Below are positions 9,333 through 34,836 of a stretch of 37,197 nucleotides of DNA, piece after piece. Origin of the DNA: a virus (taxonomy: Duplodnaviria > Caudoviricetes); the IMG/VR virus record IMGVR_UViG_3300048609_000006, positions 1 through 37,197 of that record, one strand, 5' to 3'. Made by a program: the position numbers and the translations under genes. The notes beneath the pieces are model-generated. The model had not been told where the DNA came from. It made no database searches and saw nothing but the letters and a program-made list of their open reading frames with translations. Within the stretch, counting starts at the first letter, position 1, and the number at the start of each line of letters is the position of its first letter.

Positions 9333-10355
9333 TCATTTCCTTTTCATTTCAACAACTTTTCCATCTGTTTGTTTTTTTGCAGGATTTAATTGGTTTTTTT
9401 GAGCATCTATTATCTTTTGACTGAGCGATTTGATCTGATCGGCGATAAAGGTCAAGTGGTCAATCGCTTCTTTGGAACGGTTAAACTCAATCATCAAGTC
9501 AATCATTTTCGGATCAGGTTGGACAAGAAGGTTTGCGCCTCTCAGGTTCTTAAAGAACCCCTCAAGCTCCGTCAATCGCTTATTCGCATTCAACTCTTCA
9601 TCTGTAGGTATTGGCGGCTTCATTCCGGATGCTTGGTGTTCGGCTAAAATGTCATGTCTGGCTTCTTGAACAGCTTGTTTGATATCCGCCTTAATCGCCA
9701 TTTTCTGAATCTCAGTAGGAGGTATGTTGGTTTCAATTGCTTTCTGTTTTAATTCCGGCGATATGGACTCGTCTTTCAGGACTTTCACGAGTTGTTCGGT
9801 TTCTCGGGTAGTCAAGTCTTCTTTGACAACCTTGTCTGCGATGGCGGATTGTAGCTCTTTTGGAGCTTGAGCAATTCCTCGCGCTTGAGTTGGATTTATC
9901 ACGCGCGTGATAATTTTCTCTTTAATGGATTCATCAAGCCCAAGTAATGACAATCTATAGCTGACCCAATTTTGAGTTTTACCAAACTCCTTAGAAACCC
10001 TATCCTGCGTCCATTTGAACTGTTCGATCATCTGCCGGATGCCTTCTGCTTCTTCCAATTCTGAAAGGCTGTGTGATTGAATATTGGCAGTCATCAATGC
10101 CTTGAATGCTTGTTCGTCATCCATTTCAACCACATCACAATTCACGTCAAGCGAGCCTATTTTAGTGATTGCAACCTTTCTTCGATGACCCGAAATGATC
10201 TGAAATCCATCGCCCCACGGTCTTACGAGTATTGCAGTAAGCAAACCCATTTCTTTAATGCTTTCCACAAGCTCGTCTATGTTCAATTGCTTACGCGGAT
10301 TATTAGGATGCTCGTACAATTTACTTAGCTTTACGACTTGCCTTTTCGACTTCAC
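9333..10355 (-). CDS. ParB/Spo0J-like protein
   Basis: 'NPRK...ELVESIKEMGLLTAILVR...IISGHRR' ParB N-terminal CTP-binding patch. HTH 'WTQDRVSKEFGKTQNWVSYRLSLL'. Confidence 0.9.
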   Translation of the reverse strand: MKSKRQVVKLSKLYEHPNNPRKQLNIDELVESIKEMGLLTAILVRPWGDGFQIISGHRRKVAITKIGSLDVNCDVVEMDDEQAFKALMTANIQSHSLSELEEAEGIRQMIEQFKWTQDRVSKEFGKTQNWVSYRLSLLGLDESIKEKIITRVINPTQARGIAQAPKELQSAIADKVVKEDLTTRETEQLVKVLKDESISPELKQKAIETNIPPTEIQKMAIKADIKQAVQEARHDILAEHQASGMKPPIPTDEELNANKRLTELEGFFKNLRGANLLVQPDPKMIDLMIEFNRSKEAIDHLTFIADQIKSLSQKIIDAQKNQLNPAKKQTDGKVVEMKRK

Positions 10356-11579: not shown

Positions 11580-11813
11580 TCATTGCGCCAAGTCTTGAAA
11601 CAAGTCATCGACTGTGGTTTCGAAATACTTAGCAAGTTTAAACATAAAGCCTGCTTCTGGGTTACACAGACCACCCTCAAGTCTGCGGATAAAACTTTCA
11701 GTAACACCTAAATCTAAAGCGACGGCAAGTTGAGTTTTGCTTTTTTGTAAACGAAGAATTTTGAATCGAGTGCGCTTCTGGATGGTACGGGAATCTGCTT
11801 TGCGTCTAGCCAT
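11580..11813 (-). CDS. Cro-like XRE HTH regulator
   Basis: Start ATG 11813 after AAAGGAG. 'KTQLAVALDLGVTESFIRRLEGG...LAKYFETTVDDLF'. Divergent from the repressor. Confidence 0.85.
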   Translation of the reverse strand: MARRKADSRTIQKRTRFKILRLQKSKTQLAVALDLGVTESFIRRLEGGLCNPEAGFMFKLAKYFETTVDDLFQDLAQ

Positions 11814-11850
11814 GCGGTATCTCCTTTCAATGTATTTGTATGCGTTGCGT

Positions 11851-11901
11851 GTGCATTTTCTGCGCACGACAAATATACCATGTGCATATTGTGCGCGTCA
11901 A
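11851..11901. promoter_or_regulatory. Genetic switch: two 15-bp operators and the leftward early promoter
   Basis: GTGCATTTTCTGCGC (11851-11865) and GTGCATATTGTGCGC (11882-11896), pseudo-palindrome GYGCA-N5-TGCRC. Minus-strand TTGACG (11896-11901), 18 bp, TATATT (11872-11877) with extended TG. Confidence 0.75.
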
Positions 11902-11934
11902 CATATTTTTTTTGATAAAGAAAGGTGTATATTA

Positions 11935-12708
11935 ATGATTTCTGATAAGGAACATAAAAAGCTTATAGGGTTGCGTCTTAGGGGATTGAGAGAAAAAGCT
12001 GGATTAATTCAGTCCGAAGTTGCAGAAGCAACAAATTCAGAAAGAGCAAGTATCTCAAATTATGAAATAGGGAGAGCTATTCCTCCCAGTAAGGTTCTAA
12101 AATCATTAGCTCTTTTATTTCATACAACAATTGACTATATCCTCGGAAAAACAGATGATCCGCAATTAACCGCAAAACTTAACCAACGAGATACCGAGGA
12201 AAAAGAACTCACTGAAAAAATATTTTTAAAACTAAAATATACAGTAGACATCGAAAATAATTTCTTTGAGTATTTACGAGAAGACATATTCAAGGCAATA
12301 TCAGATAATCTATATATGGCTTATGCGTACCATAATGCTAATGACAACGACTTTTATATTAATCATTTCAAAAAATACTTTGGATCATTGGATGAATTTA
12401 CAAAAAGAGAACACGAAGAATCTACCGAGGAATTTAAAAAAGCATATAATTTTTCTAATGTTAAAAAAGTGTTAGAACTCACTAACAGAGAGCGCAAAGA
12501 GATATTCCTTTCTAGTCTTCAAAATATAATTGATAAATACAACATAAAAAACCCCGACCCATTGGCGAATGAGAAGGAGTTTAGTAACACTTTATTCGAT
12601 AAGATAAAAGTTCTTGCCAATAAACATGGCATGGATTTAGCTGATCCTTCAACGCTTGAATTGATGGATAGTGCGTTCGATTTCATTAAGAGGATGAAGT
12701 CTAAATAA
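11935..12708 (+). CDS. CI-like repressor, XRE HTH plus uncharacterised C-terminal domain
   Basis: Start ATG 11935 after AAAGGTG. 'IGLRLRGLREKAGLIQSEVA...ISNYEIG...TTIDYILGKTD'. No recognisable S24 peptidase motifs. Confidence 0.85.
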   Translation: MISDKEHKKLIGLRLRGLREKAGLIQSEVAEATNSERASISNYEIGRAIPPSKVLKSLALLFHTTIDYILGKTDDPQLTAKLNQRDTEEKELTEKIFLKLKYTVDIENNFFEYLREDIFKAISDNLYMAYAYHNANDNDFYINHFKKYFGSLDEFTKREHEESTEEFKKAYNFSNVKKVLELTNRERKEIFLSSLQNIIDKYNIKNPDPLANEKEFSNTLFDKIKVLANKHGMDLADPSTLELMDSAFDFIKRMKSK

Positions 12709-12783
12709 TTCGATCAAATCATAATAAAATAATTCGCCCTGATCCATCGATTCTTTCAGACAAATTTCCTTCTGCTTGTCCAT
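12649..12783 (-). CDS. Unannotated 44-aa protein, candidate SOS-inducible antirepressor
   Basis: MDKQKEICLKESMDQGELFYYDLIELFRLHPLNEIERTIHQFKR. RBS AAGGGAAGTGG. Has its own promoter overlapped by a LexA box. Confidence 0.6.
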   Translation of the reverse strand: MDKQKEICLKESMDQGELFYYDLIELFRLHPLNEIERTIHQFKR

Positions 12784-12825
12784 TATCCACTTCCCTTATG
12801 ATTTATTTCTCTTAATGGGAATTTC

Positions 12826-12861
12826 ATTATAGCATATGAGTATAATACGAACAACCGTTCT
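12826..12861 (-). promoter_or_regulatory. LexA (Cheo) box overlapping the -35 of a leftward extended -10 promoter
   Basis: CGAAC-AACC-GTTCT at 12848-12861. Minus-strand TTGTTC (12849-12854), 17 bp, TATAAT (12826-12831) preceded by TG. Confidence 0.75.
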
Positions 12862-13078
12862 ATCATCATGTAAAACGTTTCAATAGGAAAATTATAGCTC
12901 TAATCGACAAGGTTTGTATATGTGCTGAAAGTGCCAAGAAAATATTAGATTTGAAACGAAGACCTCAACTTCGCTTAAAAATGTCTAGTAAAATTTGCTC
13001 AGTTCTGCTAAACTAAATTTCGACAAAGTTTACAGCAAATACTCCAGCCGATGGGGATAATACAAATGGGGAATTATA

Positions 13079-13690
13079 ATGGGATTTTTAAAAGTATTAG
13101 GTTGGATATTTGTGCCATACATAATGATGGTTGTCCAATGGAAGAAAACAAGTAAGGTAGTAAAGGTGTTCGGCGGCATATGGGCACTTGTAGCATTGCT
13201 TGTCGTTATTGGATCATTTATGCCAACACCTCCACCGACAGCAGAAGAGATTGCGAGAGAGCAGGTACAAGCAGCCAAACTACAAAAAATAAAAGATGAT
13301 GGTGACGCTAAGATTGCAGCTATTGAGGCAGAAGCGGAAGCTATAAAAGTAAAAAATGCAAAGGCAGAAGAAGAAAAAGCTGCTGAAGAAGAAAAAGCAA
13401 GGATCGCAAAGGAAATTGAAGACAGCAAACCGAAGCTTGAAGTGTTGGATCACAAGTGGGTAAACGAAGAATATAGCAGTTATGTATCGGGTACTGTCAT
13501 CAATAACACAAAGAAAGAATACTCATACGCCCAAGTCGAGGTTAATCTATATGACAAAGACGGAGCTGTTGTCGGTAGTTCCTTAGCAAACATTAATAAT
13601 TTAGAGGGTGGCGCAAAATGGAAGTTCAAAGCCGTTGTTCTTGAGGATAACGTAGCTAGCTATAAAATAAAAGATGTTACTGGATTTTAG
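13079..13690 (+). CDS. Membrane-anchored FxLYD-domain protein
   Basis: N-terminal hydrophobic helices, charged helical stalk, C-terminal 'VSGTVINNT...YAQVEVNLYDKDGAVVGSSLANINNLEGGAKWKFKA'. Confidence 0.85.
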   Translation: MGFLKVLGWIFVPYIMMVVQWKKTSKVVKVFGGIWALVALLVVIGSFMPTPPPTAEEIAREQVQAAKLQKIKDDGDAKIAAIEAEAEAIKVKNAKAEEEKAAEEEKARIAKEIEDSKPKLEVLDHKWVNEEYSSYVSGTVINNTKKEYSYAQVEVNLYDKDGAVVGSSLANINNLEGGAKWKFKAVVLEDNVASYKIKDVTGF

Positions 13691-13710
13691 AGCCCTCCTG
13701 GGCTTTTTTT
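13691..13710 (+). terminator. Intrinsic terminator
   Basis: AGCCC-TCCT-GGGCT followed by a T run. Confidence 0.8.
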
Positions 13711-13820
13711 ATTCCCCATATTTCCCTATCTGAATCCTTATCAACTCCGCAAGTTAACAATCACCAGACTCACGTTAATTCTGAGGAAAAAATTATTTTC
13801 ATGTTCGTACTATGTTCCCA

Positions 13821-13849
13821 TTTACTTAGTAAACTATCTGTGTTACATT
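13821..13849 (+). promoter_or_regulatory. sigmaA promoter with inverted-repeat operator over the -35
   Basis: TTTACT, 17 bp, TACATT with extended TG. Palindrome TTTACT-T-AGTAAA at 13821-13833. Confidence 0.65.
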
Positions 13850-13885
13850 AAATATATGGAAAACAAACAAACGGAGGTAATGAAG

Positions 13886-14188
13886 ATGGGAAGATTGATG
13901 AGCATTGTAAAAAGAAATGTGAATGTAGAAGTGATAAAAAATACTAAAGATAATTACGAGATCGTGTTGGATGGTGCTACTTATAAAACTTATGTGGTTT
14001 GCTTAAGGGGCATCCCATCTTGGTCAGTTCCGGCAGAAGCTTGCAAAAAACATTTTGGAATAGCAAAAGAAAGCTTCATCGAACATCATTCGGCTAAAGC
14101 AATTCATGAAGCCAACGAAAAAAACAGAAAAAGCAATTACGCTTTTAGGGAAAATCAACGCAAAGAGTTTTATGGAGAAGTTGAATAA
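13886..14188 (+). CDS. Small hypothetical accessory protein (~100 aa)
   Basis: Probable start ATG 13886, 7 nt after GGAGGT. The stop codon abuts the hammerhead. Confidence 0.75.
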   Translation: MGRLMSIVKRNVNVEVIKNTKDNYEIVLDGATYKTYVVCLRGIPSWSVPAEACKKHFGIAKESFIEHHSAKAIHEANEKNRKSNYAFRENQRKEFYGEVE

Positions 14189-14238
14189 GATCGAAACCGC
14201 TACGGCGGTCTAACGGTGAAGCCGTTACTGACGAGATC
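14189..14238 (+). ncRNA. Type II hammerhead self-cleaving ribozyme
   Basis: GATC (stem II), GAAA, CCGC/TACG/GCGG (stem III), TC^, TAACGG/TGAAG/CCGTTA (stem I), CTGACGA, GATC (stem II). All core nucleotides present. GUC cleavage predicted after 14210. Confidence 0.93.
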
Positions 14239-14318
14239 AGAATTCGAGTTAGATAAAAAAGCAATTGAAGAAAAGTCGCGGCTAACAAAGGGTAGCGGAC
14301 TTAAAGGAGTTAATTAAA

Positions 14319-14735
14319 ATGTCAGAATTTAAAAATGTTACTGTGAATTATATGGAACTCGTTAAATTGGTGAACGGATCGGACTCTTTCGGTCACTTCG
14401 ATTTCTCTTTATTGGCAGATGGCACAATTGCCGTGCTAGAAAAAGATCGCTCTGCTGATGATGTCATTTCACGCTTTCGTGTTGGATCGAGCCATAACGA
14501 CCGCGCAAATCGTTTCTTGGGAAAATGGGAAGATAACATTACTGCTGAGGATTTAGCTGATTGGGACTTCGGTAACGAGTTAGACGAACTTGAGGAATAT
14601 GTAATAAACTCTCTTATGCCGGAGCAAGATGCGATATATAATGTGATTTTCGAGGGGGATAGGAATACAACAAAAATGGCAATAAAGGAAGCGTTCGTAA
14701 ACAAAAACAGTGGAACGCTTGTGTTAGGCATATAA
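14319..14735 (+). CDS. Acidic hypothetical accessory protein (138 aa)
   Basis: RBS AAAGGAG. D/E-rich segment 'WEDNITAEDLADWDFGNELDELEEY'. Confidence 0.8.
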   Translation: MSEFKNVTVNYMELVKLVNGSDSFGHFDFSLLADGTIAVLEKDRSADDVISRFRVGSSHNDRANRFLGKWEDNITAEDLADWDFGNELDELEEYVINSLMPEQDAIYNVIFEGDRNTTKMAIKEAFVNKNSGTLVLGI

Positions 14736-14763
14736 AAAAAGAAAGCCCAGGGGCTTTCTTTTT
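14736..14763. terminator. Bidirectional intrinsic terminator
   Basis: AAAAAGAAAGCC-CAGG-GGCTTTCTTTTT. Confidence 0.85.
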
Positions 14764-14770
14764 CACATCA

Positions 14771-14840
14771 CATGTTACGGTTAAATGATTTTAAATAAAA
14801 TGTAATTAAGATATTTCAATACACTTCATGTTGCGGTTAA
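14771..14840. repeat. 14-bp direct repeat CATGTTRCGGTTAA
   Basis: Copies at 14771-14784 and 14827-14840, one mismatch. Confidence 0.7.
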
Positions 14841-14889
14841 TAAACCTATGATAAACCAACTTGCGAAAAAATACAACAGGAGGTTTTTT

Positions 14890-15300
14890 ATGTATAAGGG
14901 CTTAGCGGTTCAATTTTACAACATAATTAAAGGCGAAACACAGGACACCAGCATGATCGCCCAATGTTTAAATAAGATGCATCAGGACGGATTCGATTTA
15001 CAAGAGCTTTTAGACTCGGGACTTTTGGCATTCGAGAAAGGATTGGTCGAATCTATATTAAAAAAACCAAAAGAGGATCCTTTAATTAATTCCAAGGAGT
15101 TTGCGGGAATGCTTGAGATTAGTAAACAGGCTTTCCATCAGCGTTATAAACGTTCTTTAAACCCTAACAGTGAAAGTGATCTTCCAGTTGCTTCGTACTC
15201 CCAAGATGGCAAGAACCCAATGTGGTATTTGTCTGTAGTGCAGACTTATGTAGTTCGCAGGAAAATGAATAGAAACAAAAAAAGCCCCCACCTGAAATAG
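14890..15300 (+). CDS. Putative regulator with C-terminal excisionase/MerR-like HTH
   Basis: Start ATG 14890 after AGGAGG. 'LINSKEFAGMLEISKQAFHQRYKR...LPV...NPMWYLSVVQTY'. Confidence 0.7.
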   Translation: MYKGLAVQFYNIIKGETQDTSMIAQCLNKMHQDGFDLQELLDSGLLAFEKGLVESILKKPKEDPLINSKEFAGMLEISKQAFHQRYKRSLNPNSESDLPVASYSQDGKNPMWYLSVVQTYVVRRKMNRNKKSPHLK

Positions 15301-15311
15301 CGTGAGGGCTT
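15277..15311 (-). terminator. Terminator at the end of the late/lysis operon
   Basis: AAGCCC...GGGCTT stem with a T run on the minus strand, between convergent genes. Confidence 0.7.
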
Positions 15312-15315
15312 GGGT

Positions 15316-16020
15316 TTATTGTATGGGTTGTCCTGATACTTTCCGCAGTTCATTCGCCAATCGAGCAGCTTCTTTCATGCCAGCGGGATCACCTTGCTTC
15401 TTTGCACATTCATAATCTGGCTTTAAAAATTTATTGATTATTTTGTTTGCATCTTCTTTAAGCATTTCTAATCCCCCTTTCAACTTATCGTTAACCAATT
15501 TCTTAAATCGCTCAAATTCGCTCGGATTACGTACCCAAGGCAGCGGACAATCCTTCCAGCCGACTACCCCCTTATGGGTGAACAGCACTTCCGGGAACCC
15601 TTCGTTTCGGATCAAATGAACAACAATATCGGTAGCATTCTGAAAAGTGTCTTCGTGGATGCTGCCATCGGCTTCGATGCACATTTCAATACCTACTGTA
15701 GTGTCGTTCGGATAATTGCCTAACGCCTTGATTGCATCTGAGAGATATGGCTGCGAGCTGCCGCAATGGTATCCACGTTCATTCGTCGGGATGCTTTGGA
15801 CAATGGATTGCCTGTCTACACTGAAATGCGCTCCGGCATATCGATCCGGCACATTGTCTTTGGTATTTTGATCTTTGAGTCCTATGAAGTAACGGCTTAT
15901 ATTTTTAGCTGGCGCACCTGGAGAGGCAGTGTAGTGCAACACAATCCCCCTCTTGGATTTTAACTTTCTACCATCCCTACTAAAGGGATTTATTTGAATT
16001 AAATCTTGCATGATATCCAA
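15316..16020 (-). CDS. Endolysin, N-acetylmuramoyl-L-alanine amidase (Amidase_2)
   Basis: 'GIVLHYT', 'AHFSVD', 'GYHCG', 'VGIEMC' and 'THK...WKDCP'. Downstream of the holin. Confidence 0.92.
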   Translation of the reverse strand: MDIMQDLIQINPFSRDGRKLKSKRGIVLHYTASPGAPAKNISRYFIGLKDQNTKDNVPDRYAGAHFSVDRQSIVQSIPTNERGYHCGSSQPYLSDAIKALGNYPNDTTVGIEMCIEADGSIHEDTFQNATDIVVHLIRNEGFPEVLFTHKGVVGWKDCPLPWVRNPSEFERFKKLVNDKLKGGLEMLKEDANKIINKFLKPDYECAKKQGDPAGMKEAARLANELRKVSGQPIQ

Positions 16021-25203: not shown

Positions 25204-25596
25204 CTACATCCCCAATCGCTCGAAAATCTCTTTTGCAACCTCTTCCGCAACTCCGCTTTGATAATGGTCTGCGGTCGAGCGCATAAACGGTCGAGGAGCA
25301 ACCCCTTCACGTCCAGTTTCGACATGGAATCCATAATTCGCTGATCTTCTTCCAATATTTATAGATGCACTTTGTTTGATTGTCCTCTTAGGCCTGGCCC
25401 GCGATATTTTAATTGCATCGCGCAAATGTAAATCATCACTCGAACCTATCGGAATGTTCGCTTTTATTTTCGGAGCTAAATATTCAGCTCCTTTATTTAC
25501 CGCACCATGAAGGATCACTTTTGACTCGTTTCCAAGTTGCGTCAACGCCCTCAATACTTCTTCAAATCCTTCTACTTCAACGTCGATTCTCGCCAA
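25204..25596 (-). CDS. HK97 gp10-family tail component
   Basis: 'VEGFEEVLRAL', 'LRDAI' and 'YGFHVETG...APRPFMR'. Confidence 0.85.
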   Translation of the reverse strand: MARIDVEVEGFEEVLRALTQLGNESKVILHGAVNKGAEYLAPKIKANIPIGSSDDLHLRDAIKISRARPKRTIKQSASINIGRRSANYGFHVETGREGVAPRPFMRSTADHYQSGVAEEVAKEIFERLGM

Positions 25597-25597
25597 A

Positions 25598-25921
25598 TCA
25601 ATCCCCTCCTAAGGCGGAATTCATGAGTTTTACCATTGCGAACATTTGTTCAGCAGATTGCTCTTTTTTTGTTTCTTCTTTACTCATAAAATCTTTATAA
25701 CTTGGTATCTTCTCCGCTCTAGTTAACGCAGCGATAAGCCATGCCTGAGACATGGATATTTCCATATTTTTTTCTTCTCGATTTATATATTCATTCATCA
25801 AAACGTTAAATTCGTAAGGAGTTAATTGCCAAAACTCTAACGGTTTTATTCCGGCGGTAGCAGCTTGCTTGATTAGATCGTCCCAGACCCAAGATTCATC
25901 GCTACCGCCTGCTTGTTTTTT
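25598..25921 (-). CDS. Tail assembly chaperone C-terminal extension (gpGT-like, -1 frame)
   Basis: The -1 frame is open from the slippery site: KQAGGSDESWVWDDLIKQAATAGIKPLEFWQLTPYEFNVL, continuing into ORF 25598-25801. Confidence 0.8.
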   Translation of the reverse strand, partial: KKQAGGSDESWVWDDLIKQAATAGIKPLEFWQLTPYEFNVLMNEYINREEKNMEISMSQAWLIAALTRAEKIPSYKDFMSKEETKKEQSAEQMFAMVKLMNSALGGD

Positions 25922-26199
25922 GAGAATGCCTCGTCGATTGCCTTGCCCATTAGTTCAGCCGCTTCTTCGATTGAGCTATGATCGTCGATAAGTTCCATTA
26001 CTTTTTCTGGTGTCAGTTCCTTATCTTCGTGATACAGCCCGACAAATATCAGCACACCCAAATCTTTTATGGATACTTTGTTAAAGTCAATGAATAGCAT
26101 TTCTTTGCCTGTTGTTTCTTCAAAAAGTGAAAGGGCGACCATACCATATCTAAGATTGCGGACCTTGTCCAATTTATAGGGTATATATGCTTTTGCCAT
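25873..26199 (-). CDS. Tail assembly chaperone (gpG-like)
   Basis: Follows the major tail protein. A AAA AAC slippery heptamer near the 3' end. Confidence 0.85.
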   Translation of the reverse strand: MAKAYIPYKLDKVRNLRYGMVALSLFEETTGKEMLFIDFNKVSIKDLGVLIFVGLYHEDKELTPEKVMELIDDHSSIEEAAELMGKAIDEAFSKNKQAVAMNLGSGTI

Positions 26200-26202
26200 A
26201 AT

Positions 26203-26229
26203 AAATAGGGGCTACCGCAGCAACCCCTT
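26203..26229 (-). terminator. Hairpin or weak terminator after the major tail gene
   Basis: Minus strand AGGGGTTGC-TGCG-GTAGCCCCCT-ATTT, directly against the chaperone start region. Confidence 0.5.
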
Positions 26230-26247
26230 GTCCCTCCTTTAATTCAA

Positions 26248-26967
26248 TTAGGAAACCTTATTCAAAATTATATTGTACGTTATTTCCGTCTTTCCAACTT
26301 CGTTAACGACTAAAGTAACTCGTTTGCTGACTGCGATTGTTAATGCAATAGACGATGAAGCAACTCCAGATGTAACTGATTCGATATAAACGTCATCAAT
26401 ATAAAGCTTGATCGTATGCGAGGCCGCTGTAGGAGTTACAGTTACACTTGCTGCCGTCACCCCGATGAATGTATAGGAACGGAGTGCTGTACCGAATGCA
26501 GGGGATAATGCGCCGCCTGCTCCAGTCAAGGTTAGGGCAGTCAATCCACCGGATGCAGTTATGTTGAGTGTAGGCTTTCCAGATATCTTCAAGACAGCTT
26601 CAAACTTCAATGCCCCGCCTGTATCTGCATCACCACCTTTAAAGCTTTTGACTAACGCCGAGAACGTCCACGTTGCGCCCATGGATGTTGGAAATGTAAT
26701 GGTGTAACTCCCCAATGTCCCTGCGTTAAAATCAGTTAAAAGCACTGCTTGTCCCAAGGTATCTCCCGGATACATATTGCCCGAAATCTGACACTCTCCA
26801 CCGTCACGAAAACCTTGGATAAACTCTTTATAACCGTCCGCCTGAGCCAGTGTGGTGACATCCACCATATCGGAATCTATCGCTAGACCGCCGATATTCG
26901 TTACTTCACCAATTACATTTAAACCAGTTTTTATTGTCGTACTTTTAGAATGGACTGCTGCTGTCAT
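26248..26967 (-). CDS. Major tail tube protein with C-terminal Ig/cadherin-like domain
   Basis: 'VDVTTL...GYKEFIQGFRDGGE...LKISGKP' tube fold, then 'LTALTL...LSPAF...YT...VTVTPTA'. Confidence 0.88.
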   Translation of the reverse strand: MTAAVHSKSTTIKTGLNVIGEVTNIGGLAIDSDMVDVTTLAQADGYKEFIQGFRDGGECQISGNMYPGDTLGQAVLLTDFNAGTLGSYTITFPTSMGATWTFSALVKSFKGGDADTGGALKFEAVLKISGKPTLNITASGGLTALTLTGAGGALSPAFGTALRSYTFIGVTAASVTVTPTAASHTIKLYIDDVYIESVTSGVASSSIALTIAVSKRVTLVVNEVGKTEITYNIILNKVS

Positions 26968-26979
26968 TTTAGAACCTCC

Positions 26980-27357
26980 TTATTCGGTATAATAAATAGA
27001 AAACTCAACGACACCTTTATATTTCACGATGTCGATGAGTTCTTCAATATCTTCCATTTCGTTTAATATTTCGACTGACTGGATGAACGTGCTCCCAATC
27101 GTTAACTGGTTGTATGTTTTTAACCTAGCGATTACCGCCGCTTTAATTGTTAACATCGCCGCTCTGGTGCTGTGATAGATGTCTAATTGAAAGGCGGTTT
27201 CTACGTTGCCAAAGCTTGTGAGTGTCTGCTCCCGCTGCGTGCTGATGCGGTTGTAAACGCCATAAGGCAACGTTGCGCTTTTGCCTGCCCTAAGTGCGTA
27301 AAGGGATGATAAACCCGTGACCGTGATTAGGTTCGCGTACAGATTATTTTCGATCAC
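26980..27357 (-). CDS. Tail completion/terminator protein (DUF3168/gp17-like)
   Basis: 'LPYGVYNRIS...FQLDIYH'. Directly before the major tail gene. Confidence 0.8.
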   Translation of the reverse strand: MIENNLYANLITVTGLSSLYALRAGKSATLPYGVYNRISTQREQTLTSFGNVETAFQLDIYHSTRAAMLTIKAAVIARLKTYNQLTIGSTFIQSVEILNEMEDIEELIDIVKYKGVVEFSIYYTE

Positions 27358-27677
27358 ACAAACACCTCTTTTGCACCAATCTGCATCTCGATATTGCGCT
27401 CTTCATAGTCCAACACTTCAAAAATCTGAAATATTCGAGTTCCGAAAAGCGCTCTGCATTTTGGGGTTACAGTAGAAAGATGGCGTATCCTGATTTTGTG
27501 CGTGATTTCGGAATTAACCATTTTGGCATTCACTAGTTCGCGACCGACTAGAGGTGAAATCGATGCCCAAACCGTCGCTAATGTTGCCCACGTTTCAACA
27601 AGTCCGCCTCCTGCATCCACCGTATCCGTAGAAGTCTGGAATGTGATTCTATGTCTTAAGGAACCTGCATTCATCAT
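27354..27677 (-). CDS. Head closure (head-tail adaptor, SPP1 gp16-like)
   Basis: 'MNAGSLRHRITFQ...W..LATVWASISPLVGRE...THKIRIRH'. Confidence 0.92.
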   Translation of the reverse strand: MMNAGSLRHRITFQTSTDTVDAGGGLVETWATLATVWASISPLVGRELVNAKMVNSEITHKIRIRHLSTVTPKCRALFGTRIFQIFEVLDYEERNIEMQIGAKEVFV

Positions 27678-28270
27678 TGCAACCTCATTACACGGTATGG
27701 TCCGATCAAATAATCGAACGTCATCGGCACTTTCTCTACGGCTTTATCGACGGGCTGCCTATTTTCGTACCAGTGCGCCACAAGGAAGAAGATTGCTTGT
27801 TTTAAAGGTTGCGGGACTGCTACTGCCAAGCCGTAACCAGCCACAAAACGGATGCGGATCGCTGAAGCAGGTCTTAAAACGACGGTCGGCCATTGTTTGC
27901 CATAGCCCAAAACAACTCTTCCGCTATCGGTATCAACGATGTAATCGGCAGCGGACATGGTGTTGGTCACATCATCCGAACCGATATAAGTAATGCTTGT
28001 CACCGATTGCAGCTTAGGTTTACGCATAGTTATGGTGTTTCCACACGGAAAACGATCCAATACATAGTCCCAAGTCTGTGTTATCAACGCTCGGTTTGTG
28101 CGTTCCTCTGCAATTGTGCGAGCTGCGACAATCAATGCAGTTATATAGGAGTCATCATCCGTGGAATCTATACGCAAATGTGCCTTTGCTTCGGTCAATG
28201 TAATTGGTTCAACAGCAGGGGCTGTGACGAGTGTCAGTGCCCATTGAATATTCTTGTTATTCAGGCTCAT
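27674..28270 (-). CDS. Head-tail connector (HK97 gp6 / phiE125 gp8-like)
   Basis: 'EPITLTEAKAHLRID...DDSYI...RALITQTW...VAHWYENR'. Confidence 0.92.
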   Translation of the reverse strand: MSLNNKNIQWALTLVTAPAVEPITLTEAKAHLRIDSTDDDSYITALIVAARTIAEERTNRALITQTWDYVLDRFPCGNTITMRKPKLQSVTSITYIGSDDVTNTMSAADYIVDTDSGRVVLGYGKQWPTVVLRPASAIRIRFVAGYGLAVAVPQPLKQAIFFLVAHWYENRQPVDKAVEKVPMTFDYLIGPYRVMRLQ

Positions 28271-28306
28271 TACCTCTCATCCTTTCTTGTAAATATCAAT
28301 CCTCCT

Positions 28307-29122
28307 TTATGCTGTAGTGAACGCCTGCCATACGCTCCATCTAGTGTAGTAACCTTCCAAATGTTTGTGACGAGTTCTCAGCTCGTATATGGTTGCTAAT
28401 GTTAATGCTGGAGACACATTTACACTTAAACTTGCAACATCTCCACTACTATATACGACTATCCCAGAAGATTGTGAGCGAATTTCAATTTGTGTATATG
28501 ATTGAGTATAGTCATGATGTGCCGTTGTTGTTGCGTGTATCGTAGCCCAAGAGTTATTCATGCTGAATGTACATGTTCCTGTTAAAAATGTAGTCGTTCG
28601 CAATTTAACTTCTGTGGCGGTCGTTGTTCTTATCACAGCTTTGGCTTGAGGTTGCGATCCTGCATTGCTGGCAAATGTAGACGGTATGATACTTCCAGAT
28701 TGAGCATTAGGAAGAACGGAATTATCCGCAGCCAATACCCAATCGAAGTAAACAAATCCAGCGGCAGAAGTAAATGCAGTGAGATTAGGCGCTCCCGTAA
28801 GCTCAAACTCATAATGAGCAGGTAACGTAAATACTCCAGTAGTTGTATTTAACGGTATATCCGTGTCGGAAAATTGGTTATAGACAAGATCTGTATCGAT
28901 TACTATCCCGGTAACATCTGAAGTTGCGCGGGTGTAAAAGCTGTAAAGATTCGATACGCCTTCTTTTGTAACAATCGTTGGCGTAACGCTTATACCAGTT
29001 TCCCCGATTGTTGGACTTGTTATTGTAGGTAACGGCATTGTGGTAGAATGCACGGATTGATGAAAAAACGTATCGTCTGGATCTATTACCGGTGTATCTG
29101 ATATGCCGTTTATTATCCTCAT
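28307..29122 (-). CDS. Putative virion accessory protein (beta-rich; C1q/BclA-like middle, FnIII-like end)
   Basis: Thr-rich. 'LNTTTGVFTLPA' and C-terminal 'YELRTRHK...YTRWSVWQAFTT'. Confidence 0.5.
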   Translation of the reverse strand: MRIINGISDTPVIDPDDTFFHQSVHSTTMPLPTITSPTIGETGISVTPTIVTKEGVSNLYSFYTRATSDVTGIVIDTDLVYNQFSDTDIPLNTTTGVFTLPAHYEFELTGAPNLTAFTSAAGFVYFDWVLAADNSVLPNAQSGSIIPSTFASNAGSQPQAKAVIRTTTATEVKLRTTTFLTGTCTFSMNNSWATIHATTTAHHDYTQSYTQIEIRSQSSGIVVYSSGDVASLSVNVSPALTLATIYELRTRHKHLEGYYTRWSVWQAFTTA

Positions 29123-29134
29123 CGTTCATCCTCC

Positions 29135-29494
29135 TCAGTGGATTGCCGACCAAATAATCTCTAGGCCATACGTCCTTGTACTGGCATTTGCCCATGCTAT
29201 AACCAATTTATCGCCATTTGAAAAATTTATAGGTCTAGTAGGTTGCCAGTGCAAATCAACTACGCTAGTCATGTCCTGCGTGAAAAGGACTGTATCGTAT
29301 GCAGCGCCGGCAATGGCATCAAGCGTAATAGTTAAATTACCCGCTCCGCCTGCGGCGCTTAAATGCAGGCGAAATTCTTCGAGTTGAAATGTCTGCACCG
29401 GATCAAGAGTTGAAGCTATCGCTATCGCCCCAGTGGCTCGGTGAAATCTCCGCATTTGTTCACACCCCCTTATCTCGAGATAACAATAGTGCAT
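29135..29494 (-). CDS. Hypothetical head-region structural protein
   Basis: Beta-rich ORF in the late operon. True start probably MRRFHR after GGGGGTG. Confidence 0.6.
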   Translation of the reverse strand: MHYCYLEIRGCEQMRRFHRATGAIAIASTLDPVQTFQLEEFRLHLSAAGGAGNLTITLDAIAGAAYDTVLFTQDMTSVVDLHWQPTRPINFSNGDKLVIAWANASTRTYGLEIIWSAIH

Positions 29495-30795
29495 GAAGCA
29501 GGCATAGTTGCATCTGTGCCGCCGTCACTTATAATCTCGATGGCTTGTCCTGCTGTCACAACATTTGTTGCAGTTGGAACCGAGCTTGATACAGTTCCTG
29601 CTGCTTGTGTAATAGTGATTTCCCAAGCTGGAGCCGTCACTAGGACACCTGCGATTTCAGCGGTAAGAACCGTTTTGGTAGTTGCATTATTAACATCATT
29701 CACAGCATATAGTCCTATAATGCTGCCTGCATGAGGAGCAACAACAAAGATGCTTCCTGCTGTACCTGCATCGGTGAATTTAGCTTGCACAAAATATTCA
29801 TTAAGTTCTGCTGTAGTTGAAGTAATACCTGTCATTGTGTTTAATTCTGCGGCATTTGCTGTAACCGAAGTTCCTGCTCCAGCTCCAATTTTCAATCCGC
29901 TAACCGGAAGAGCCAAGGCAGTTAAAGCGCTATTAGCATCGACAACAAGCGCTTTACTAGCCGTTGTTGTTCCAGCAGTAACGCCGTTTAACACATTTAA
30001 TTCTGCTGCTGTACAATCAACTGCCGTTCCTGCTGCCGCACCTATTTTAAGTCCACTTACAGGTAATGCAATGTTACTTATTGCGCTGTTGGCATCAACA
30101 ACTAATGCTTTAGATGCCGCGGTTGTCCCGCCTGTAACTCCAGCTAATTTATTGATTTCCACCGCCGTTGAAGTAACTGCCGTTCCTGCGACAGCCCCCA
30201 AATATAAACCGCCATCAGCAATGACGAGCGTATCTATATTTTTTGTTGCCCCTAAAGATAAAACTTTGCTTGCTACTGCCGTTCCTGCGATAGATCCATC
30301 AATTAAATTAATTTCCGCTGCTGTTGCCGTTATAGCTGTTCCCGCTCCAGCTCCTAATGAAAGTCCTCCATCTGCAATAACAAGAACGTCAAGGTTTTTA
30401 TTGGCTCCCAAAACAGCCGCTTTACTAGCTACCGAAGTACCCGCTACAGAACCATCAAGCAAGTTTATTTCTGCGGCTGTAGATGTTACTGCCGTGCCTG
30501 TAGTTGCTCCGAGTTTCAACCCACCATCTGCAATAACGATAGTATCAATGTGCTTGTCAGCATCAACCACAACCGCCTTTGAGGCAGTAACTGTCCCTGG
30601 GGTTATGCCGTCTAAATATAAACTCTCCGCAGGGCTAGCAAGAGCTACGCCGGCTACTTTTAATTTATCTGCTATTTTAATGTCTACCGTTCCGTCAGAC
30701 TCAATAGATAACAATTCCGTTCCGCTATTGTCTGTGTAGACGAGATTTCCACTCGACCATTTTGCTTTTATATTAGTTACCGGCATTGCATCCAT
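29470..30795 (-). CDS. Putative head fibre/decoration protein with five 52-aa repeats
   Basis: Unit LDG..AGT..ASKA.V.....D..VIADGGL.LGA.AGTA.T.TAAEIN. 156-bp DNA periodicity. Confidence 0.7.
   Translation of the reverse strand: MDAMPVTNIKAKWSSGNLVYTDNSGTELLSIESDGTVDIKIADKLKVAGVALASPAESLYLDGITPGTVTASKAVVVDADKHIDTIVIADGGLKLGATTGTAVTSTAAEINLLDGSVAGTSVASKAAVLGANKNLDVLVIADGGLSLGAGAGTAITATAAEINLIDGSIAGTAVASKVLSLGATKNIDTLVIADGGLYLGAVAGTAVTSTAVEINKLAGVTGGTTAASKALVVDANSAISNIALPVSGLKIGAAAGTAVDCTAAELNVLNGVTAGTTTASKALVVDANSALTALALPVSGLKIGAGAGTSVTANAAELNTMTGITSTTAELNEYFVQAKFTDAGTAGSIFVVAPHAGSIIGLYAVNDVNNATTKTVLTAEIAGVLVTAPAWEITITQAAGTVSSSVPTATNVVTAGQAIEIISDGGTDATMPASCTIVISR
29836..30615. repeat. Five degenerate 156-bp tandem repeats
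   Basis: CCnCCATCwGCAAT recurs at ~30209, 30365 and 30521. Protein repeats align without gaps. Confidence 0.85.
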
Positions 30796-30833
30796 CTCCC
30801 TTTGAGTTTAAGGCCGTGGTTCGGCCGAATGAT

Positions 30834-30857
30834 AAAAAAACCACCCCGAAGGATGGC
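30834..30857 (-). terminator. Intrinsic terminator with UUCG loop
   Basis: Minus strand GCCATCC-TTCG-GGGTGGT-TTTTTT. Confidence 0.8.
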
Positions 30858-30865
30858 GCGTTACA

Positions 30866-31348
30866 TTATGCGATTGCTGTCGCGGACTGATCTCCGCCAT
30901 ATCTTGCTCCGGAAAGAATGGCTACTGCGCTGACGAGAGTTGCTCCGCCTGGTGCCGACCATTTAAGGATTAAACAAGGATATCCGTCTGAAAGTTGAGC
31001 GGCATCAATCTCGATTACGTAAGTGATATTGTCGTTCGCGCTCACATCAATGCCCGTTGCAGCCACTGCGGCTGTTCTTGCTCCAAGTGTGTCTCCTGCG
31101 GCCGTTGTTTCAGCATAGTAACTAAAATCAATCGCTGTATCGTTTGATGGCGTGAAGTTGTCGCACTCTTCGATGGTGACGAATCCAGCATCTGCGTTGG
31201 TCGCGCCACAAGTAACGATGATTGAGCAATGCGCATAGTTCTTCATGCTCCACACATCGCTTGTGACAGCTCCTGTAATGGATACTGGCGGTAAAATATT
31301 AACGACGTGAAACTCTTCTGCAATTGTTGTTCCTGCCATTTCAAACAT
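30866..31348 (-). CDS. Putative capsid decoration/cement protein
   Basis: 160-aa beta-rich ORF directly after the capsid gene ('WSMKNY...YVIEIDAAQL...AILSGARY'). AGGAGG RBS. Confidence 0.6.
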   Translation of the reverse strand: MFEMAGTTIAEEFHVVNILPPVSITGAVTSDVWSMKNYAHCSIIVTCGATNADAGFVTIEECDNFTPSNDTAIDFSYYAETTAAGDTLGARTAAVAATGIDVSANDNITYVIEIDAAQLSDGYPCLILKWSAPGGATLVSAVAILSGARYGGDQSATAIA

Positions 31349-31392
31349 TCCTCCTAGAATTTTAGTGGCGAAGATAAACCGAAAAAAGGCAT

Positions 31393-31415
31393 AATAAAAA
31401 GCCCTTTCTCGGCTT
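31393..31415 (-). terminator. Intrinsic terminator after the capsid gene
   Basis: Minus strand AAGCC-GAGAAAG-GGCTT-TTTATT. Confidence 0.65.
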
Positions 31416-31428
31416 GTGGGTTAAGCTA

Positions 31429-32757
31429 TTATCTTGTTGCTAAAACAACGTGCGGGCTTTGTGTGTTGCTGCCCTTAAATGGTGTTAATGTCGAGTGCCA
31501 GATCGGTTGTCCATCCACACGATAAACAAACTTGAACACCTGCTCATCGTAGATAAAACGAACATGAACCGATACGTCTGACTTGATAGAACCTTTGTCT
31601 GCGATGAGATATTGAGAAAAGTCAGAGAGGATGATATCACCGACAGTTCCAAGCGTCTGGCATTGCTCCAGCGGAATGACCGGGCGACCAAATAATGTGC
31701 TGTATGGCGAGTCCGACAATCCATTTGCCGGCATGTACACTGGCGCTCCGCCTGTGCCTACTGCGATAGACATGGTGTACAGTTGTGGCTCAATGTCTTG
31801 GTTGATATACCAAGCAGCATTCATGCGACTGCGACCGTAGCAACGAGACCACATCTTGACGATGTTCTCTACGAGGATTGTAGCAGCGGCTTGACCCGTT
31901 TCTTTAGTGACGGTCACTAAAGAAGGTGCATTTAGAATCCCTAATGGTTGTCCAGCCCCAGTGCCATTGATAATGACATCATCAAGCTTAAACCCAAATT
32001 CTTCGGCAAATCCGTCGGTTAGGATACTTTCTAGGGCTGCGGCATCTTCCAATAGTTCGTCCGTTGCATAGCAAAGACCTGTGAGCTTCTTCAGATTCAA
32101 TTCGATCTTACGGAATTTCGGCTTGCTGCCTACATAGACATCAGCTTCATTCTCCCAATAAGCTTGAATACCACCCATACGCGATCCATTGGCGCGGCTT
32201 GTCTCATCAATGCCGTTGATCTTAATACCGTTAGCATTGGCTGAGATAGGTATCTTGCGAACCCTCGAAGCAAGTACACCTGTATCGTAGGCTTTTTTTA
32301 GCAGTTCAGTTGTGAAGTCCTGCTGAACTAGAAAACCTCCATCACTCGGAACGGCTTCACTTAATCCAGTCGCTGCGTTCCTGATAAACAAGCGAGGATC
32401 GATAGTTCCTCCGGGCGCTGCGGCTGCTCTTACTGCCAGCATTTGCTCCCCGAAACTCGCCCAAGGCTTTTCTGCTTCGCGATTAGTACCGACAATAATT
32501 GCACTTGGCGTTGCCCTACCTCCCGCCGCCATTGGTACAGGAGTTTGCAGTTGCGAATTCAAAGCAACAAGTTCGGCCTCACGCTTGACTTGCAGTTCAG
32601 ACTCCGCAAGCTTCGCCTGATATGCATCGCGCTCCACTTCATAAGCCTTAAACATTGTTTCTTCTTCATCTGTGAATCCTCTACCAGCCGCTTTTGCTGT
32701 ATCCAGCATAGCTTTCATAGCAGCCAGCGTGTTCTTTAGTAATAATCCGTAATCCAT
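31429..32757 (-). CDS. Major capsid protein, HK97 fold with N-terminal scaffold (delta) domain
   Basis: Start MDYGLL at 32757 after AAAGGAG. 'SDGGFLV', 'TDELLEDAA', 'NGTGAGQPLGIL' and 'TLFGRPVI'. Confidence 0.95.
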   Translation of the reverse strand: MDYGLLLKNTLAAMKAMLDTAKAAGRGFTDEEETMFKAYEVERDAYQAKLAESELQVKREAELVALNSQLQTPVPMAAGGRATPSAIIVGTNREAEKPWASFGEQMLAVRAAAAPGGTIDPRLFIRNAATGLSEAVPSDGGFLVQQDFTTELLKKAYDTGVLASRVRKIPISANANGIKINGIDETSRANGSRMGGIQAYWENEADVYVGSKPKFRKIELNLKKLTGLCYATDELLEDAAALESILTDGFAEEFGFKLDDVIINGTGAGQPLGILNAPSLVTVTKETGQAAATILVENIVKMWSRCYGRSRMNAAWYINQDIEPQLYTMSIAVGTGGAPVYMPANGLSDSPYSTLFGRPVIPLEQCQTLGTVGDIILSDFSQYLIADKGSIKSDVSVHVRFIYDEQVFKFVYRVDGQPIWHSTLTPFKGSNTQSPHVVLATR

Positions 32758-32758
32758 T

Positions 32759-33595
32759 TTAACAACTCCTTTGATTTTGGTAGTATTCAAGGCTTTTATA
32801 TTCAAGATCGAAATTCCGACCTATAGCCGTTGTGGCAGGTTGAACGATTGGTTCAGGAGTAGTTGTCTCCTGTATGTTTTTGGCTGCAACTTGATCTTTT
32901 AGCGCCTTTATTTCTTTTATGAGTTCGGCAATAGGATCGGATGATTTCTCGTCAGGTAGCTTCGGAGCGTTTTTGAACTTGGATAAGTCCATTTCGATTC
33001 CGTTGATGATTGCTTTACCATCCCGAATAGATGCGGCGACTGGTTGGGAATCCTCTTCGAGTCTAGTGGCAAATCCTTTTTCTACCGCCGTAGCCGCTGA
33101 CATCCAAGTTTCATCTTCAAGCATTTGTGCTAATTCCTCTCGGTCAACGCCAGTTCGAGCAACGTAAATATCTGACATCGATCCGCCAACCTCTTCCAAG
33201 TCATCGGCAAGCTTTCGGAAGTCTTTCGCGTTACCCATTCCGAAAGTCCACGGATTATGAATCATGAGCATTGACCCATTGGGCATAATGATCTCGTCGC
33301 CAGCCATAGCGATGATTGAGGCGATAGAAGCGGCTATGCCATCGATATAGACCGTGATTTTGGCTTTATGCCGCTTGAGCATAGAATGAATAGCCACGCC
33401 AGCAAATACGCTACCTCCATTGCTGTTGATACGAACGGTGATATCGTCCACATCATCGCCAAGAGCTTTCAACTCATCGTTAAACTTTTGGGGAGTGACT
33501 GCGCTATCATCCCAATAACTCTCATAAGTGCTGATATCACCATAAATCATGATCTCTGCCGACTTGGCTTGAATCTTCTTCATCTTCCATTTCAT
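32759..33595 (-). CDS. Head maturation protease, ClpP-related (S14)
   Basis: 'RINSNGGSVF', 'DGIAASIASII', 'MIHNP' and 'ETWMSA..AVEKGFA'. Confidence 0.95.
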   Translation of the reverse strand: MKWKMKKIQAKSAEIMIYGDISTYESYWDDSAVTPQKFNDELKALGDDVDDITVRINSNGGSVFAGVAIHSMLKRHKAKITVYIDGIAASIASIIAMAGDEIIMPNGSMLMIHNPWTFGMGNAKDFRKLADDLEEVGGSMSDIYVARTGVDREELAQMLEDETWMSAATAVEKGFATRLEEDSQPVAASIRDGKAIINGIEMDLSKFKNAPKLPDEKSSDPIAELIKEIKALKDQVAAKNIQETTTPEPIVQPATTAIGRNFDLEYKSLEYYQNQRSC

Positions 33596-34836
33596 TTAGT
33601 TGGTTCACCCCCTTTCGATGGATCTTGAATCGCTACTGGCGTATCAGCAGGGACCATATTCACAGGTCGCCACGTCTTGGCTAACTGTTCTGGTGTGAGT
33701 GGGTTCATATTTTCCATTGCTCTCCACTCATCCGCCGTGATAATGCCGTCCAATCTAGCGATATGGAGGGCTTCAAATCGACTTTTGATATCGCCCCTGA
33801 GCAATCCTTCCAACGAAAATTCAGCGAACATATATTTCTTTTCTTGTGCGCTAAACAATTTCCAAAGAATCGTTTGCTCAATTCGAACGCCCCAAGGAAT
33901 AATAGAAAACTTTACGAATTCTAGAGATTGATGCTCGATATTGTTGTTGGTGCTTCGTTCCAAATCAGCGAGCATATGCGGTGGCACACGAAAAAAACGA
34001 GCAATCTCAGTTACCTGAAATTTTCTCGTCTCTAAAAACTGCGCCTCGTTTGGTGGGATACCGATTCTTACATACTTCATGCCTTCTTCAAGGATCATTA
34101 ATCGGTGAGCGCGAGATAACCCCGAATAAGTTTCCTCGAATGATCTACGGAGGTTGTCTCTTCCTTCGTCACCGAGTTCGGTAGGATGTTCTAACACTCC
34201 ACTGACATTACCGCCATTGCTAAAGAATCTAGCGCCAAACTCTTCAGCAGCAAGCCCTAGCCCAATTGCTTCACGCGCCATTTGAAGGGGCGAAAATCCA
34301 CATAGACCATTAGAACTTAATCCGTGTACATGAAAGATTTGTTCCTTTTTGATCGGCACCGTCTTTCCTTCCGGCAATGTATACAGATAGATAATTTCTC
34401 CATCCAAACGGTCAACCTTCATATTCTGTGGAAGTAATGGCCATAGCCCCGTGACATCCCCAAAACTATCACTTTCAATCTCCGCATAACAATTTCCATG
34501 GAATAGCAGACCGAACATCATTACTTCCCAAAAGCTAAAGGCTGTCATTTCGGTATTTGGCTGGTTGTGTAGAATGTTATACAGTGGATGTCCTCTAGCT
34601 CTTTTCTTGCCATCTTCGCCGACTCTGATATATACATGGAGCGGAATAGATGCAATCGTTTCTGCCAGTATTCTTACCGCCGCATATACAGCCGTGTAGG
34701 TCAAGGCTGATTCCTCAGTGACTTGCTTTCCGGTGTAAGACTGACCGCCGAAAAACATATTCATCATTGACCTGCCCCAACTAGTCTTTGCTGGTTCGAC
34801 CACTCGCTTCGCGACTATTGGTCCAAAAAAACTCAA
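33592..34836 (-). CDS. Portal protein, HK97 family
   Basis: 'AVYAAVRILAETIASIPL', 'EAQFLETRKFQVTEIARFFRVPPH' and 'GLLRGD'. Confidence 0.96.
   Translation of the reverse strand: MSFFGPIVAKRVVEPAKTSWGRSMMNMFFGGQSYTGKQVTEESALTYTAVYAAVRILAETIASIPLHVYIRVGEDGKKRARGHPLYNILHNQPNTEMTAFSFWEVMMFGLLFHGNCYAEIESDSFGDVTGLWPLLPQNMKVDRLDGEIIYLYTLPEGKTVPIKKEQIFHVHGLSSNGLCGFSPLQMAREAIGLGLAAEEFGARFFSNGGNVSGVLEHPTELGDEGRDNLRRSFEETYSGLSRAHRLMILEEGMKYVRIGIPPNEAQFLETRKFQVTEIARFFRVPPHMLADLERSTNNNIEHQSLEFVKFSIIPWGVRIEQTILWKLFSAQEKKYMFAEFSLEGLLRGDIKSRFEALHIARLDGIITADEWRAMENMNPLTPEQLAKTWRPVNMVPADTPVAIQDPSKGGEPTK

Follow-up and report, generated by a model that had tools for sequence, protein, structure and literature searches.

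A predicted Aca-like autoregulated cassette with an acquired hammerhead ribozyme of known kind in a temperate phage

Two kinds of described systems come closest to the phage locus analysed here. As far as the accessible parts of two publications go (PMC9410906, PMC12282945), Aca proteins are defined by a layout of promoter, repeat and downstream regulator. Type II hammerhead ribozymes, according to the accessible part of PMC3088659, flank variable prophage genes, among them the anti-restriction gene ardA, and cleave in vitro and in Escherichia coli. Features of both are combined in IMGVR_UViG_3300048609_000006, a single virus record of 37,197 nt which is referred to as the window in the following. 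Its positions 13821-15300 hold a promoter overlapped by a palindrome, two small open reading frames (ORF1 and ORF2) with a hammerhead between them, and the gene of a helix-turn-helix (HTH) protein.

This arrangement presumably represents a cassette of Aca-like type which regulates itself and into which a ribozyme of known kind has been recruited. The interpretation in its entirety, namely a temperate-phage accessory cassette with an anti-defence cargo pair, self-repression by the HTH protein and a message split by the ribozyme, has in our judgement an even chance of being correct. Its basis is what was observed of the anatomy of the locus, the family of the regulator, the exchange of cargo between loci and the correspondence of palindrome and recognition helix. 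The link between regulator and operator is the new part and appears well supported by sequence comparison; the hammerhead is real but of known kind, its layout having been in print since 2011. All parts listed by a first-pass annotation of the locus (promoter, palindrome, leader, ORFs, hammerhead, terminators and HTH gene) were found where it had placed them.

The predicted sigma-A promoter spans positions 13821-13849 of the plus strand (-35 box TTTACT, 13821-13826; 17-nt spacer; TG, 13841-13842; -10 box TACATT, 13844-13849). It was not listed by the promoter scan because it matches eight of the 12 consensus bases and nine were required; its layout recurs at the head of the cassettes of the regulator family. 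The -35 box is covered by the palindrome TTTACT-T-AGTAAA (13821-13833), the predicted operator of the HTH protein. Being one of nine palindromes of the 6-1-6 type in the window, it is by itself not beyond chance. It recurs, identical or with one central base changed, at the family loci L246, L249, L164, L176 and L253.

Regulators of this family were detected in eight of 401 Paenibacillaceae genomes with a three-sequence profile, in 33 of the 401 with an 11-sequence profile, and in eight of 401 genomes class-wide, two of which had already been counted. In nearly all cases the regulator gene is preceded by small cargo genes of exchangeable kind and by a promoter whose -35 box is overlapped by a palindrome. 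In the two closest homologs (G019, G377) the -35 box is covered by exactly the same 13-mer, and the promoter is followed by different cargo. L156 (G018), with the helix TRG, carries another palindrome there, in each of two promoters flanking its HTH gene. A head promoter was called in 29 of the 33 loci. Its -35 dyad has on average 5.9 of eight positions paired, compared with 3.7 at 128 other promoter-like sites of the same loci (Mann-Whitney p 7e-11).

The comparison of operators with recognition helices (in the window predicted as SKQAFHQRY, amino acids 79-87) covered 27 of 37 loci, those scoring at least 40 bits; the ten weak members lie below. The site TTTACTWAGTAAA was found in all six loci with a lysine at helix position 2 (S/T-K-Q/H) and in none of the 21 others, four of the six being unbiased since L164 and L176 had been chosen by their operator pattern. 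Over these 27 loci the association has a permutation p of 0.0014, a value which ignores relatedness; the six lysine loci fall into two distinct clades whose identity to each other is 13-26%. Members of the x-Q-Q type carry TTGT-N5-ACAR in four of the five loci with an upstream-box promoter; at two more x-Q-Q loci no such promoter was called. Of the weak members, L271 and L273 show the near-match TTGAC-N3-GTAAA.

The proposal that the HTH protein acts on the palindrome is strengthened by these data, as the operator sequence changes together with the recognition helix, both family-wide and within two distinct clades. The pairing of HTH protein and operator is supported, and the protein likely recognises the palindrome at 13821-13833. 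It is also quite probable that it binds and represses the promoter in the window. The link runs from the protein to the site; the palindrome pattern alone is no marker.

Some further features of the family loci were recorded. Upstream of the -35 box in the window are two TGTTC boxes 11 nt apart (13802-13819, plus strand), and a pair with a spacing of about 11 nt recurs in most family promoters (L154, L156, L164, L253, L255-L257, L259) whatever their operator; a common factor of host or phage might bind there. At L157, L158, L160, L267 and L274 the regulator lies just upstream of membrane-protein genes, which we take to be an agrB/LytTR-type peptide-signalling module, and L157 and L158 adjoin tRNA genes. 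In one clade (L164:1961-2161, L176:3010-3210, L253, L255-L257, L264-L266) the HTH frame starts with GTG or a non-standard codon and overlaps the cargo stop codon, which suggests translational coupling and a low repressor output.

Behind the promoter, an A-rich leader (13850-13885, plus strand) with the ribosome-binding site (RBS) GGAGG at 13873-13877 leads to ORF1 (13886-14188, plus strand), which encodes a basic protein of 100 amino acids (isoelectric point, pI, 9.1) without a family and with one homolog of 55% identity. ORF2 (14319-14735, plus strand; RBS AAGGAG, 14304-14309) encodes an acidic protein of 138 amino acids (pI 4.4), likewise without a family; its homologs share 78%, 75% and 31% identity, the last one coming from 1.84 billion representatives. 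The idea of small acidic cargo in the first-pass annotation therefore fits ORF2 and does not fit ORF1. Neither protein had a match in Pfam, PHROGs, NCBIfam, PADLOC or the PDB sequences, nor a usable one in the Protein Atlas, and protein-pattern scans revealed no relatives of ORF2 in viral contigs or of ORF1 in genome contigs. The AlphaFold model of ORF2 is poor (predicted local distance difference test, pLDDT, 52.6). The repeat proteins P0012 and P0013 were excluded from alignment A5; for P0007 and P0008 alike the longest contig has 1393 nt, no more than a hint that they are neighbours.

Across the family, the cargo upstream of the HTH or fused to it falls into no fewer than twelve unrelated types, of which many are small and acidic. 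They include Gp111 (PF07410), the partner in four loci, for which the accessible parts of the literature gave no link to anti-CRISPR loci, four acidic families of 72-120 amino acids (in six, three, two and three loci) and several single types; no cargo was called before the regulator in L252, L254 and L263. Had the cassette been conserved as first suggested, cargo would vary while operator and hammerhead persist: the cargo does vary and promoter, operator and HTH gene persist, but the hammerhead does not, since it was found in none of the 32 other regulator-family loci.

The suggestion that the cargo consists of anti-CRISPR or anti-restriction proteins gained no backing from profile and structure searches, in which ORF1, ORF2 and the cargo of related loci had no named match. 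In the general libraries no named anti-defence protein was matched by any cargo tested, a negative result that is limited because no dedicated anti-CRISPR (Acr) library was among those searched; two PADLOC rows for family cargo are weak partial matches. From the layout, an anti-defence role of the cargo could be true or false with equal probability. We regard it as rather unlikely that the same regulation and ribozyme instead serve early host-takeover or phage-competition proteins which do not inhibit immunity, such as superinfection exclusion proteins, inhibitors of host processes or lysogen fitness genes. The lack of anti-defence matches and the basic nature of ORF1 would agree with such proteins, and the neighbouring FxLYD membrane protein shows that the slot holds other lysogen accessory genes. 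The quick swapping of many small acidic proteins under one autorepressor, however, is the pattern of acr-aca operons, and the published hammerhead clusters include ardA (PMC3088659, accessible part).

The type II hammerhead (14189-14239, plus strand) begins directly after the ORF1 stop codon. It consists of stem II (14189-92/14235-38), GAAA (14193-96), stem III (14197-14208), a GUC site with the predicted cut after C14210, stem I (14211-14227), CUGACGA (14228-34) and A14239. The core CUGANGA and GAAA, the UH site, the three stems and the open stem II are all present in 14189-14238. It is the sole descriptor match on both strands of the window, with no match in 100 dinucleotide shuffles, and its fold has a z of -2.9. 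Rfam 15 gave no hammerhead match, neither at the gathering score nor at E up to 5. A long pseudoknot is missing; a U ends stem I and an A follows the stem II of 4 bp, an arrangement which recurs in 33 of 46 short-loop relatives and may form a U-A Hoogsteen contact.

A pattern scan returned 122 viral loci, and about 280 viral stretches are estimated to hold this hammerhead family. The relatives comprise 108 distinct copies with 26 stem II and 58 stem I variants, and the stems are supported by this compensatory variation. Among 75 distinct relatives with flanks, an upstream ORF was called in 69 (median 5 nt from stop codon to core) and a downstream ORF in 59 (median 27 nt from the ribozyme). Of 128 flanking ORFs, 126 were scanned, one with an internal stop and one duplicate being dropped; 12 of the 126 had a Pfam family and 114 had none. 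The element is a genuine member of a family placed between phage cistrons. With its intact core and tested relatives, it is very probably an active ribozyme.

The exact variant was not found in metagenome contigs, and its three viral matches come from one unrelated phage carrying three hammerheads. A loose hammerhead pattern was dropped because its matches in the 401 genomes were at about control level, and a 33-codon frame starting within the hammerhead (GTG 14216) was considered and is not supported. In Mu-like phages (L009, L021, L027, L044, L058, L066, L069) the family occurs in the early region, adjoining HU, DUF3164, DUF2786 and GemA genes.

The relation of hammerhead and cassette was further examined with a second contig, record 4 of run X1 (2368 nt, depth 11.5 versus 15). 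It has positions 13847-13877 of the leader and 14168-14247 around the hammerhead in common with the window, and its hammerhead differs from the window copy only in loop III. In place of ORF1 it contains 777 different bases where the window has 290, and its ribozyme tail runs directly into an RBS and a different start codon; the piece of 56 nt between hammerhead tail and ORF2 RBS in the window (14248-14303, plus strand) is missing. Leader and ribozyme thus appear to persist while both gene slots change. A hairpin in the 56-nt piece is weak (z -0.6), not better than shuffles and not supported. Of 83 hammerhead-bearing viral loci, five match the HTH profile weakly (E 5e-6 to 1e-3), apparently representing two to three distinct phages. 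In two of the five, L305 and L307, an operon that combines DUF932 and small orphan genes with three hammerheads of type II ends with a 61-amino-acid HTH protein weakly similar to the regulator family.

As a rule the cassette lacks a hammerhead, although in this lineage the two may belong together. Its absence from the 32 other family loci, and the extra 56 nt which set the ORF2 start 80 nt from the ribozyme compared with the family median of 27, would also fit a passenger that arrived with ORF1 and ORF2 from the early region of another phage and has no effect on expression. This is improbable given that core and three stems are intact and that the relative differs just in loop III although its flanking genes have been replaced.

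The regulator (14890-15300, plus strand) has 136 amino acids and combines an N-terminal helical domain with an AlpA/Xis-like winged HTH domain (about amino acids 61-128). Its C-terminal half has weak excisionase-type matches (phrog_9834, excisionase/regulator, E 2e-4; Xis_Gifsy_1, E 0.02) and matched the AlpA structure 8c3t at E 0.2. The AlphaFold model is poor (pLDDT 56); fold searches with the poor models gave nothing at E 0.001, and an AcrF2 row among them (E 2.7, TM 0.16) is noise. No HTH relatives were detected by protein-pattern scans of viral contigs and metagenomes. Between the cargo genes and the HTH gene lies a bidirectional terminator-like hairpin (14736-14763, -14.3 kcal/mol), followed by two copies of the 14-nt direct repeat CATGTTRCGGTTAA 56 nt apart (14771-14784 and 14827-14840, plus strand) and a weak promoter-like site, TTCATG-16-TATGAT (14825-14852, plus strand). 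The region 14771-14852 is a candidate for an own promoter of the HTH gene. Neither the repeat nor the 56-nt piece behind the hammerhead appears in the first-pass annotation.

Operons of the HigBA type resemble the cassette in having cargo first, HTH second and an operator in the promoter, and the accessible part of PMC9410906 describes this layout for a toxin followed by its HTH partner. The extra N-terminal domain of the regulator could moreover bind a partner. A type II toxin-antitoxin or abortive-infection unit, in which toxic cargo precedes an autorepressing HTH antitoxin, nevertheless seems distinctly improbable, for one HTH family is combined with many unrelated, exchangeable cargo types, fused cargo or none (as in L252, L254 and L263), the terminator between cargo and HTH gene would starve an antitoxin, and the window proteins have no Pfam toxin family or PADLOC match, so that a fixed cognate toxin of a recognisable family was not found. 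An excisionase or recombination directionality factor unconnected to the promoter, with a palindrome arisen by chance, would agree with the top profile matches and with the nine such palindromes in the window but is very improbable, because unlike AlpA and Gifsy-1 Xis, whose winged-helix profiles its C-terminal domain weakly matches, the regulator has no integrase adjacent or among the 34 window proteins scanned and is tied to a palindrome in the promoter which, from one family member to another, varies along with the recognition helix.

Several observations speak against the interpretation as an Aca-like cassette with a ribozyme and have to be set against the evidence given so far, besides the selected loci, the relatedness ignored by the permutation and the missing anti-defence matches mentioned above. 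The weak member L310 (SVQ) has TTTAC-N3-GTAAA without the lysine, and in the weak members L267 and L311 the lysine is present but the site is missing. Palindrome and -10 pattern alone are not enriched in 116 genomes (13 versus 22 in the reversed control), and an HTH relative lies beside one of 13 genome and two of 69 viral pattern matches. In the window the terminator splits the HTH gene from the cargo, unlike in most relatives. The hammerhead is missing from the other family loci, and record 4 stops before the operator, shares just 31 nt on one side of the joint and is not independent since it comes from a possible source sample. Among the 126 ORFs flanking family hammerheads, one is a named anti-defence gene (ArdC).

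If the Aca-like interpretation holds, the promoter would fire when the DNA enters a repressor-free cell, giving a burst of ORF1 and ORF2. The HTH protein would be made more slowly behind the internal terminator, via read-through or the weak site at 14825, and after accumulating it would bind 13821-13833 as a dimer, occlude the -35 box and block the polymerase. The RNA is expected from the intact core and the tested relatives to cleave after C14210, so that each cistron would be translated and degraded independently of the other. The ORF1 piece would end 22 nt past its stop codon and the ORF2 piece would start with the stem I hairpin and a 5'-OH. In Bacillota, 5'-OH ends are open to attack by RNase J1, as for the glmS ribozyme, and a terminal hairpin may protect them. 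Cleavage could therefore affect the ORF2 RNA in either direction, with protection being favoured. The cargo would, going by the layout, act against host immunity.

We tentatively propose, with more doubt than confidence, that the regulator represents an undescribed Aca-like family of AlpA/Xis fold with a helix-to-operator code that marks anti-defence cassettes in Paenibacillaceae prophages, the hammerhead being, in this lineage, a kept part of the frame. If so, the dozen or more cargo families would be new anti-immunity proteins, and a hammerhead between two exchangeable slots would subject the entry burst to a further control at the RNA level. New anti-CRISPR and other anti-defence genes are discovered mainly by way of Aca proteins, and a regulator family with a predictable operator would give a direct candidate list in Paenibacillus and its relatives. 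What hammerheads do in phage operons has been an open question since 2011. The locus offers a minimal test case with one promoter, one operator, one ribozyme and two genes, in which cleavage and repression could each be separately switched and measured.

The gene content of the window is that of a temperate tailed phage, including replication and recombination genes, an antirepressor and cro- and cI-like repressors, while the holin, amidase endolysin, tail and terminase genes are located on the minus strand. The cassette has the convergent endolysin-holin pair on one side and, on the other, an FxLYD membrane protein with the cI/cro-like repressors. The 20 genome relatives of the endolysin belong to Paenibacillus (18), Paenibacillaceae (one) and Priestia (one); since 18 of the 20 are Paenibacillus, the host is likely Paenibacillus. 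Homologs of ORF1, ORF2 and the HTH protein are absent from 23 endolysin-relative loci, and a DNA search of the cassette gave no match to named phages. On the left the cassette is bounded by a terminator-like hairpin at the end of the FxLYD gene located upstream (13689-13710, plus strand; -10.5 kcal/mol, T run) and on the right by one in common with the convergent endolysin gene (about 15275-15320, -15.5 kcal/mol).

The scan of 34 window proteins yielded no integrase, the head and tail genes at 25204-34836 lying outside the scan and the contig being possibly incomplete. The stretch from lysis to immunity (11580-16020) contains none, whereas the related phage L123 has a recombinase-like ORF of 476 amino acids in the cassette slot, the start of which we take to resemble a serine recombinase. 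A ParB-like gene was observed at 9333-10355. A gene for integration may lie outside the contig, or the phage may persist otherwise.

Between repressor and cassette, positions 13079-13690 encode a membrane-anchored FxLYD-domain protein (NF038353), a candidate superinfection-exclusion or lysogen accessory gene. Furthermore, the motif CGAAC-AACC-GTTC (12848-12861), presumably resembling a Bacillus LexA (Cheo) box, is located within a minus-strand promoter-like site (12866-12839) that precedes a 44-codon ORF (12783-12649) overlapping the end of the cI-like gene. This ORF, which had no Pfam match, is possibly an SOS-induced small gene.

In comparison with acr-aca operons, represented by Aca1-Aca14 and the N-terminal domain of AcrIIA1 in the accessible parts of PMC9410906, PMC12282945, PMC13551039 and bioRxiv 10.1101/787200, the family has no known acr or anti-defence gene at any locus examined with the general libraries used, and for this reason the cassette cannot be filed as an acr-aca operon. 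A kinship with Aca proteins or AcrIIA1, which the first-pass annotation had drawn on, was not borne out among PDB, Pfam and NCBIfam matches, with Aca profiles not being compared directly, and the accessible part of bioRxiv 10.1101/787200 offers no support for Listeria acrIIA loci at this position. The terms Paenibacillus, AlpA and excisionase were searched for in PMC9765179 and do not occur there, and the AlpA/Xis-like HTH is a type not in Table 1 of PMC9410906 as far as accessible. Neither this regulator type as an Aca nor a ribozyme inside an Aca-type cassette was found reported in a literature search with subscription papers mostly outside it.

Compared with the type II hammerheads of Perreault et al. 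2011 (PMC3088659, accessible part), the window copy agrees in the open stem II, the full consensus core, the GUC site, the position next to the stop codon of the gene upstream and in front of an RBS, and the varying flanking genes. It differs in being single rather than clustered, in a short loop I without the long pseudoknot, in the 56 extra bases before the downstream RBS, in escaping detection by Rfam 15 and in its location inside an operator-gated cassette. With acr-aca operons, as described in the accessible parts of the above sources, the family shares variable small cargo, a DNA-binding regulator downstream of it or fused to it, and an inverted repeat in the core promoter that is specific to the regulator; at L156 one regulator would serve promoters on both sides of its gene, as is reported for Aca11 and Aca13. 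By layout the regulator lies on the cargo transcript in most relatives, whereas the cassette of the window holds an internal terminator (14736-14763) between them and, in addition, the ribozyme.

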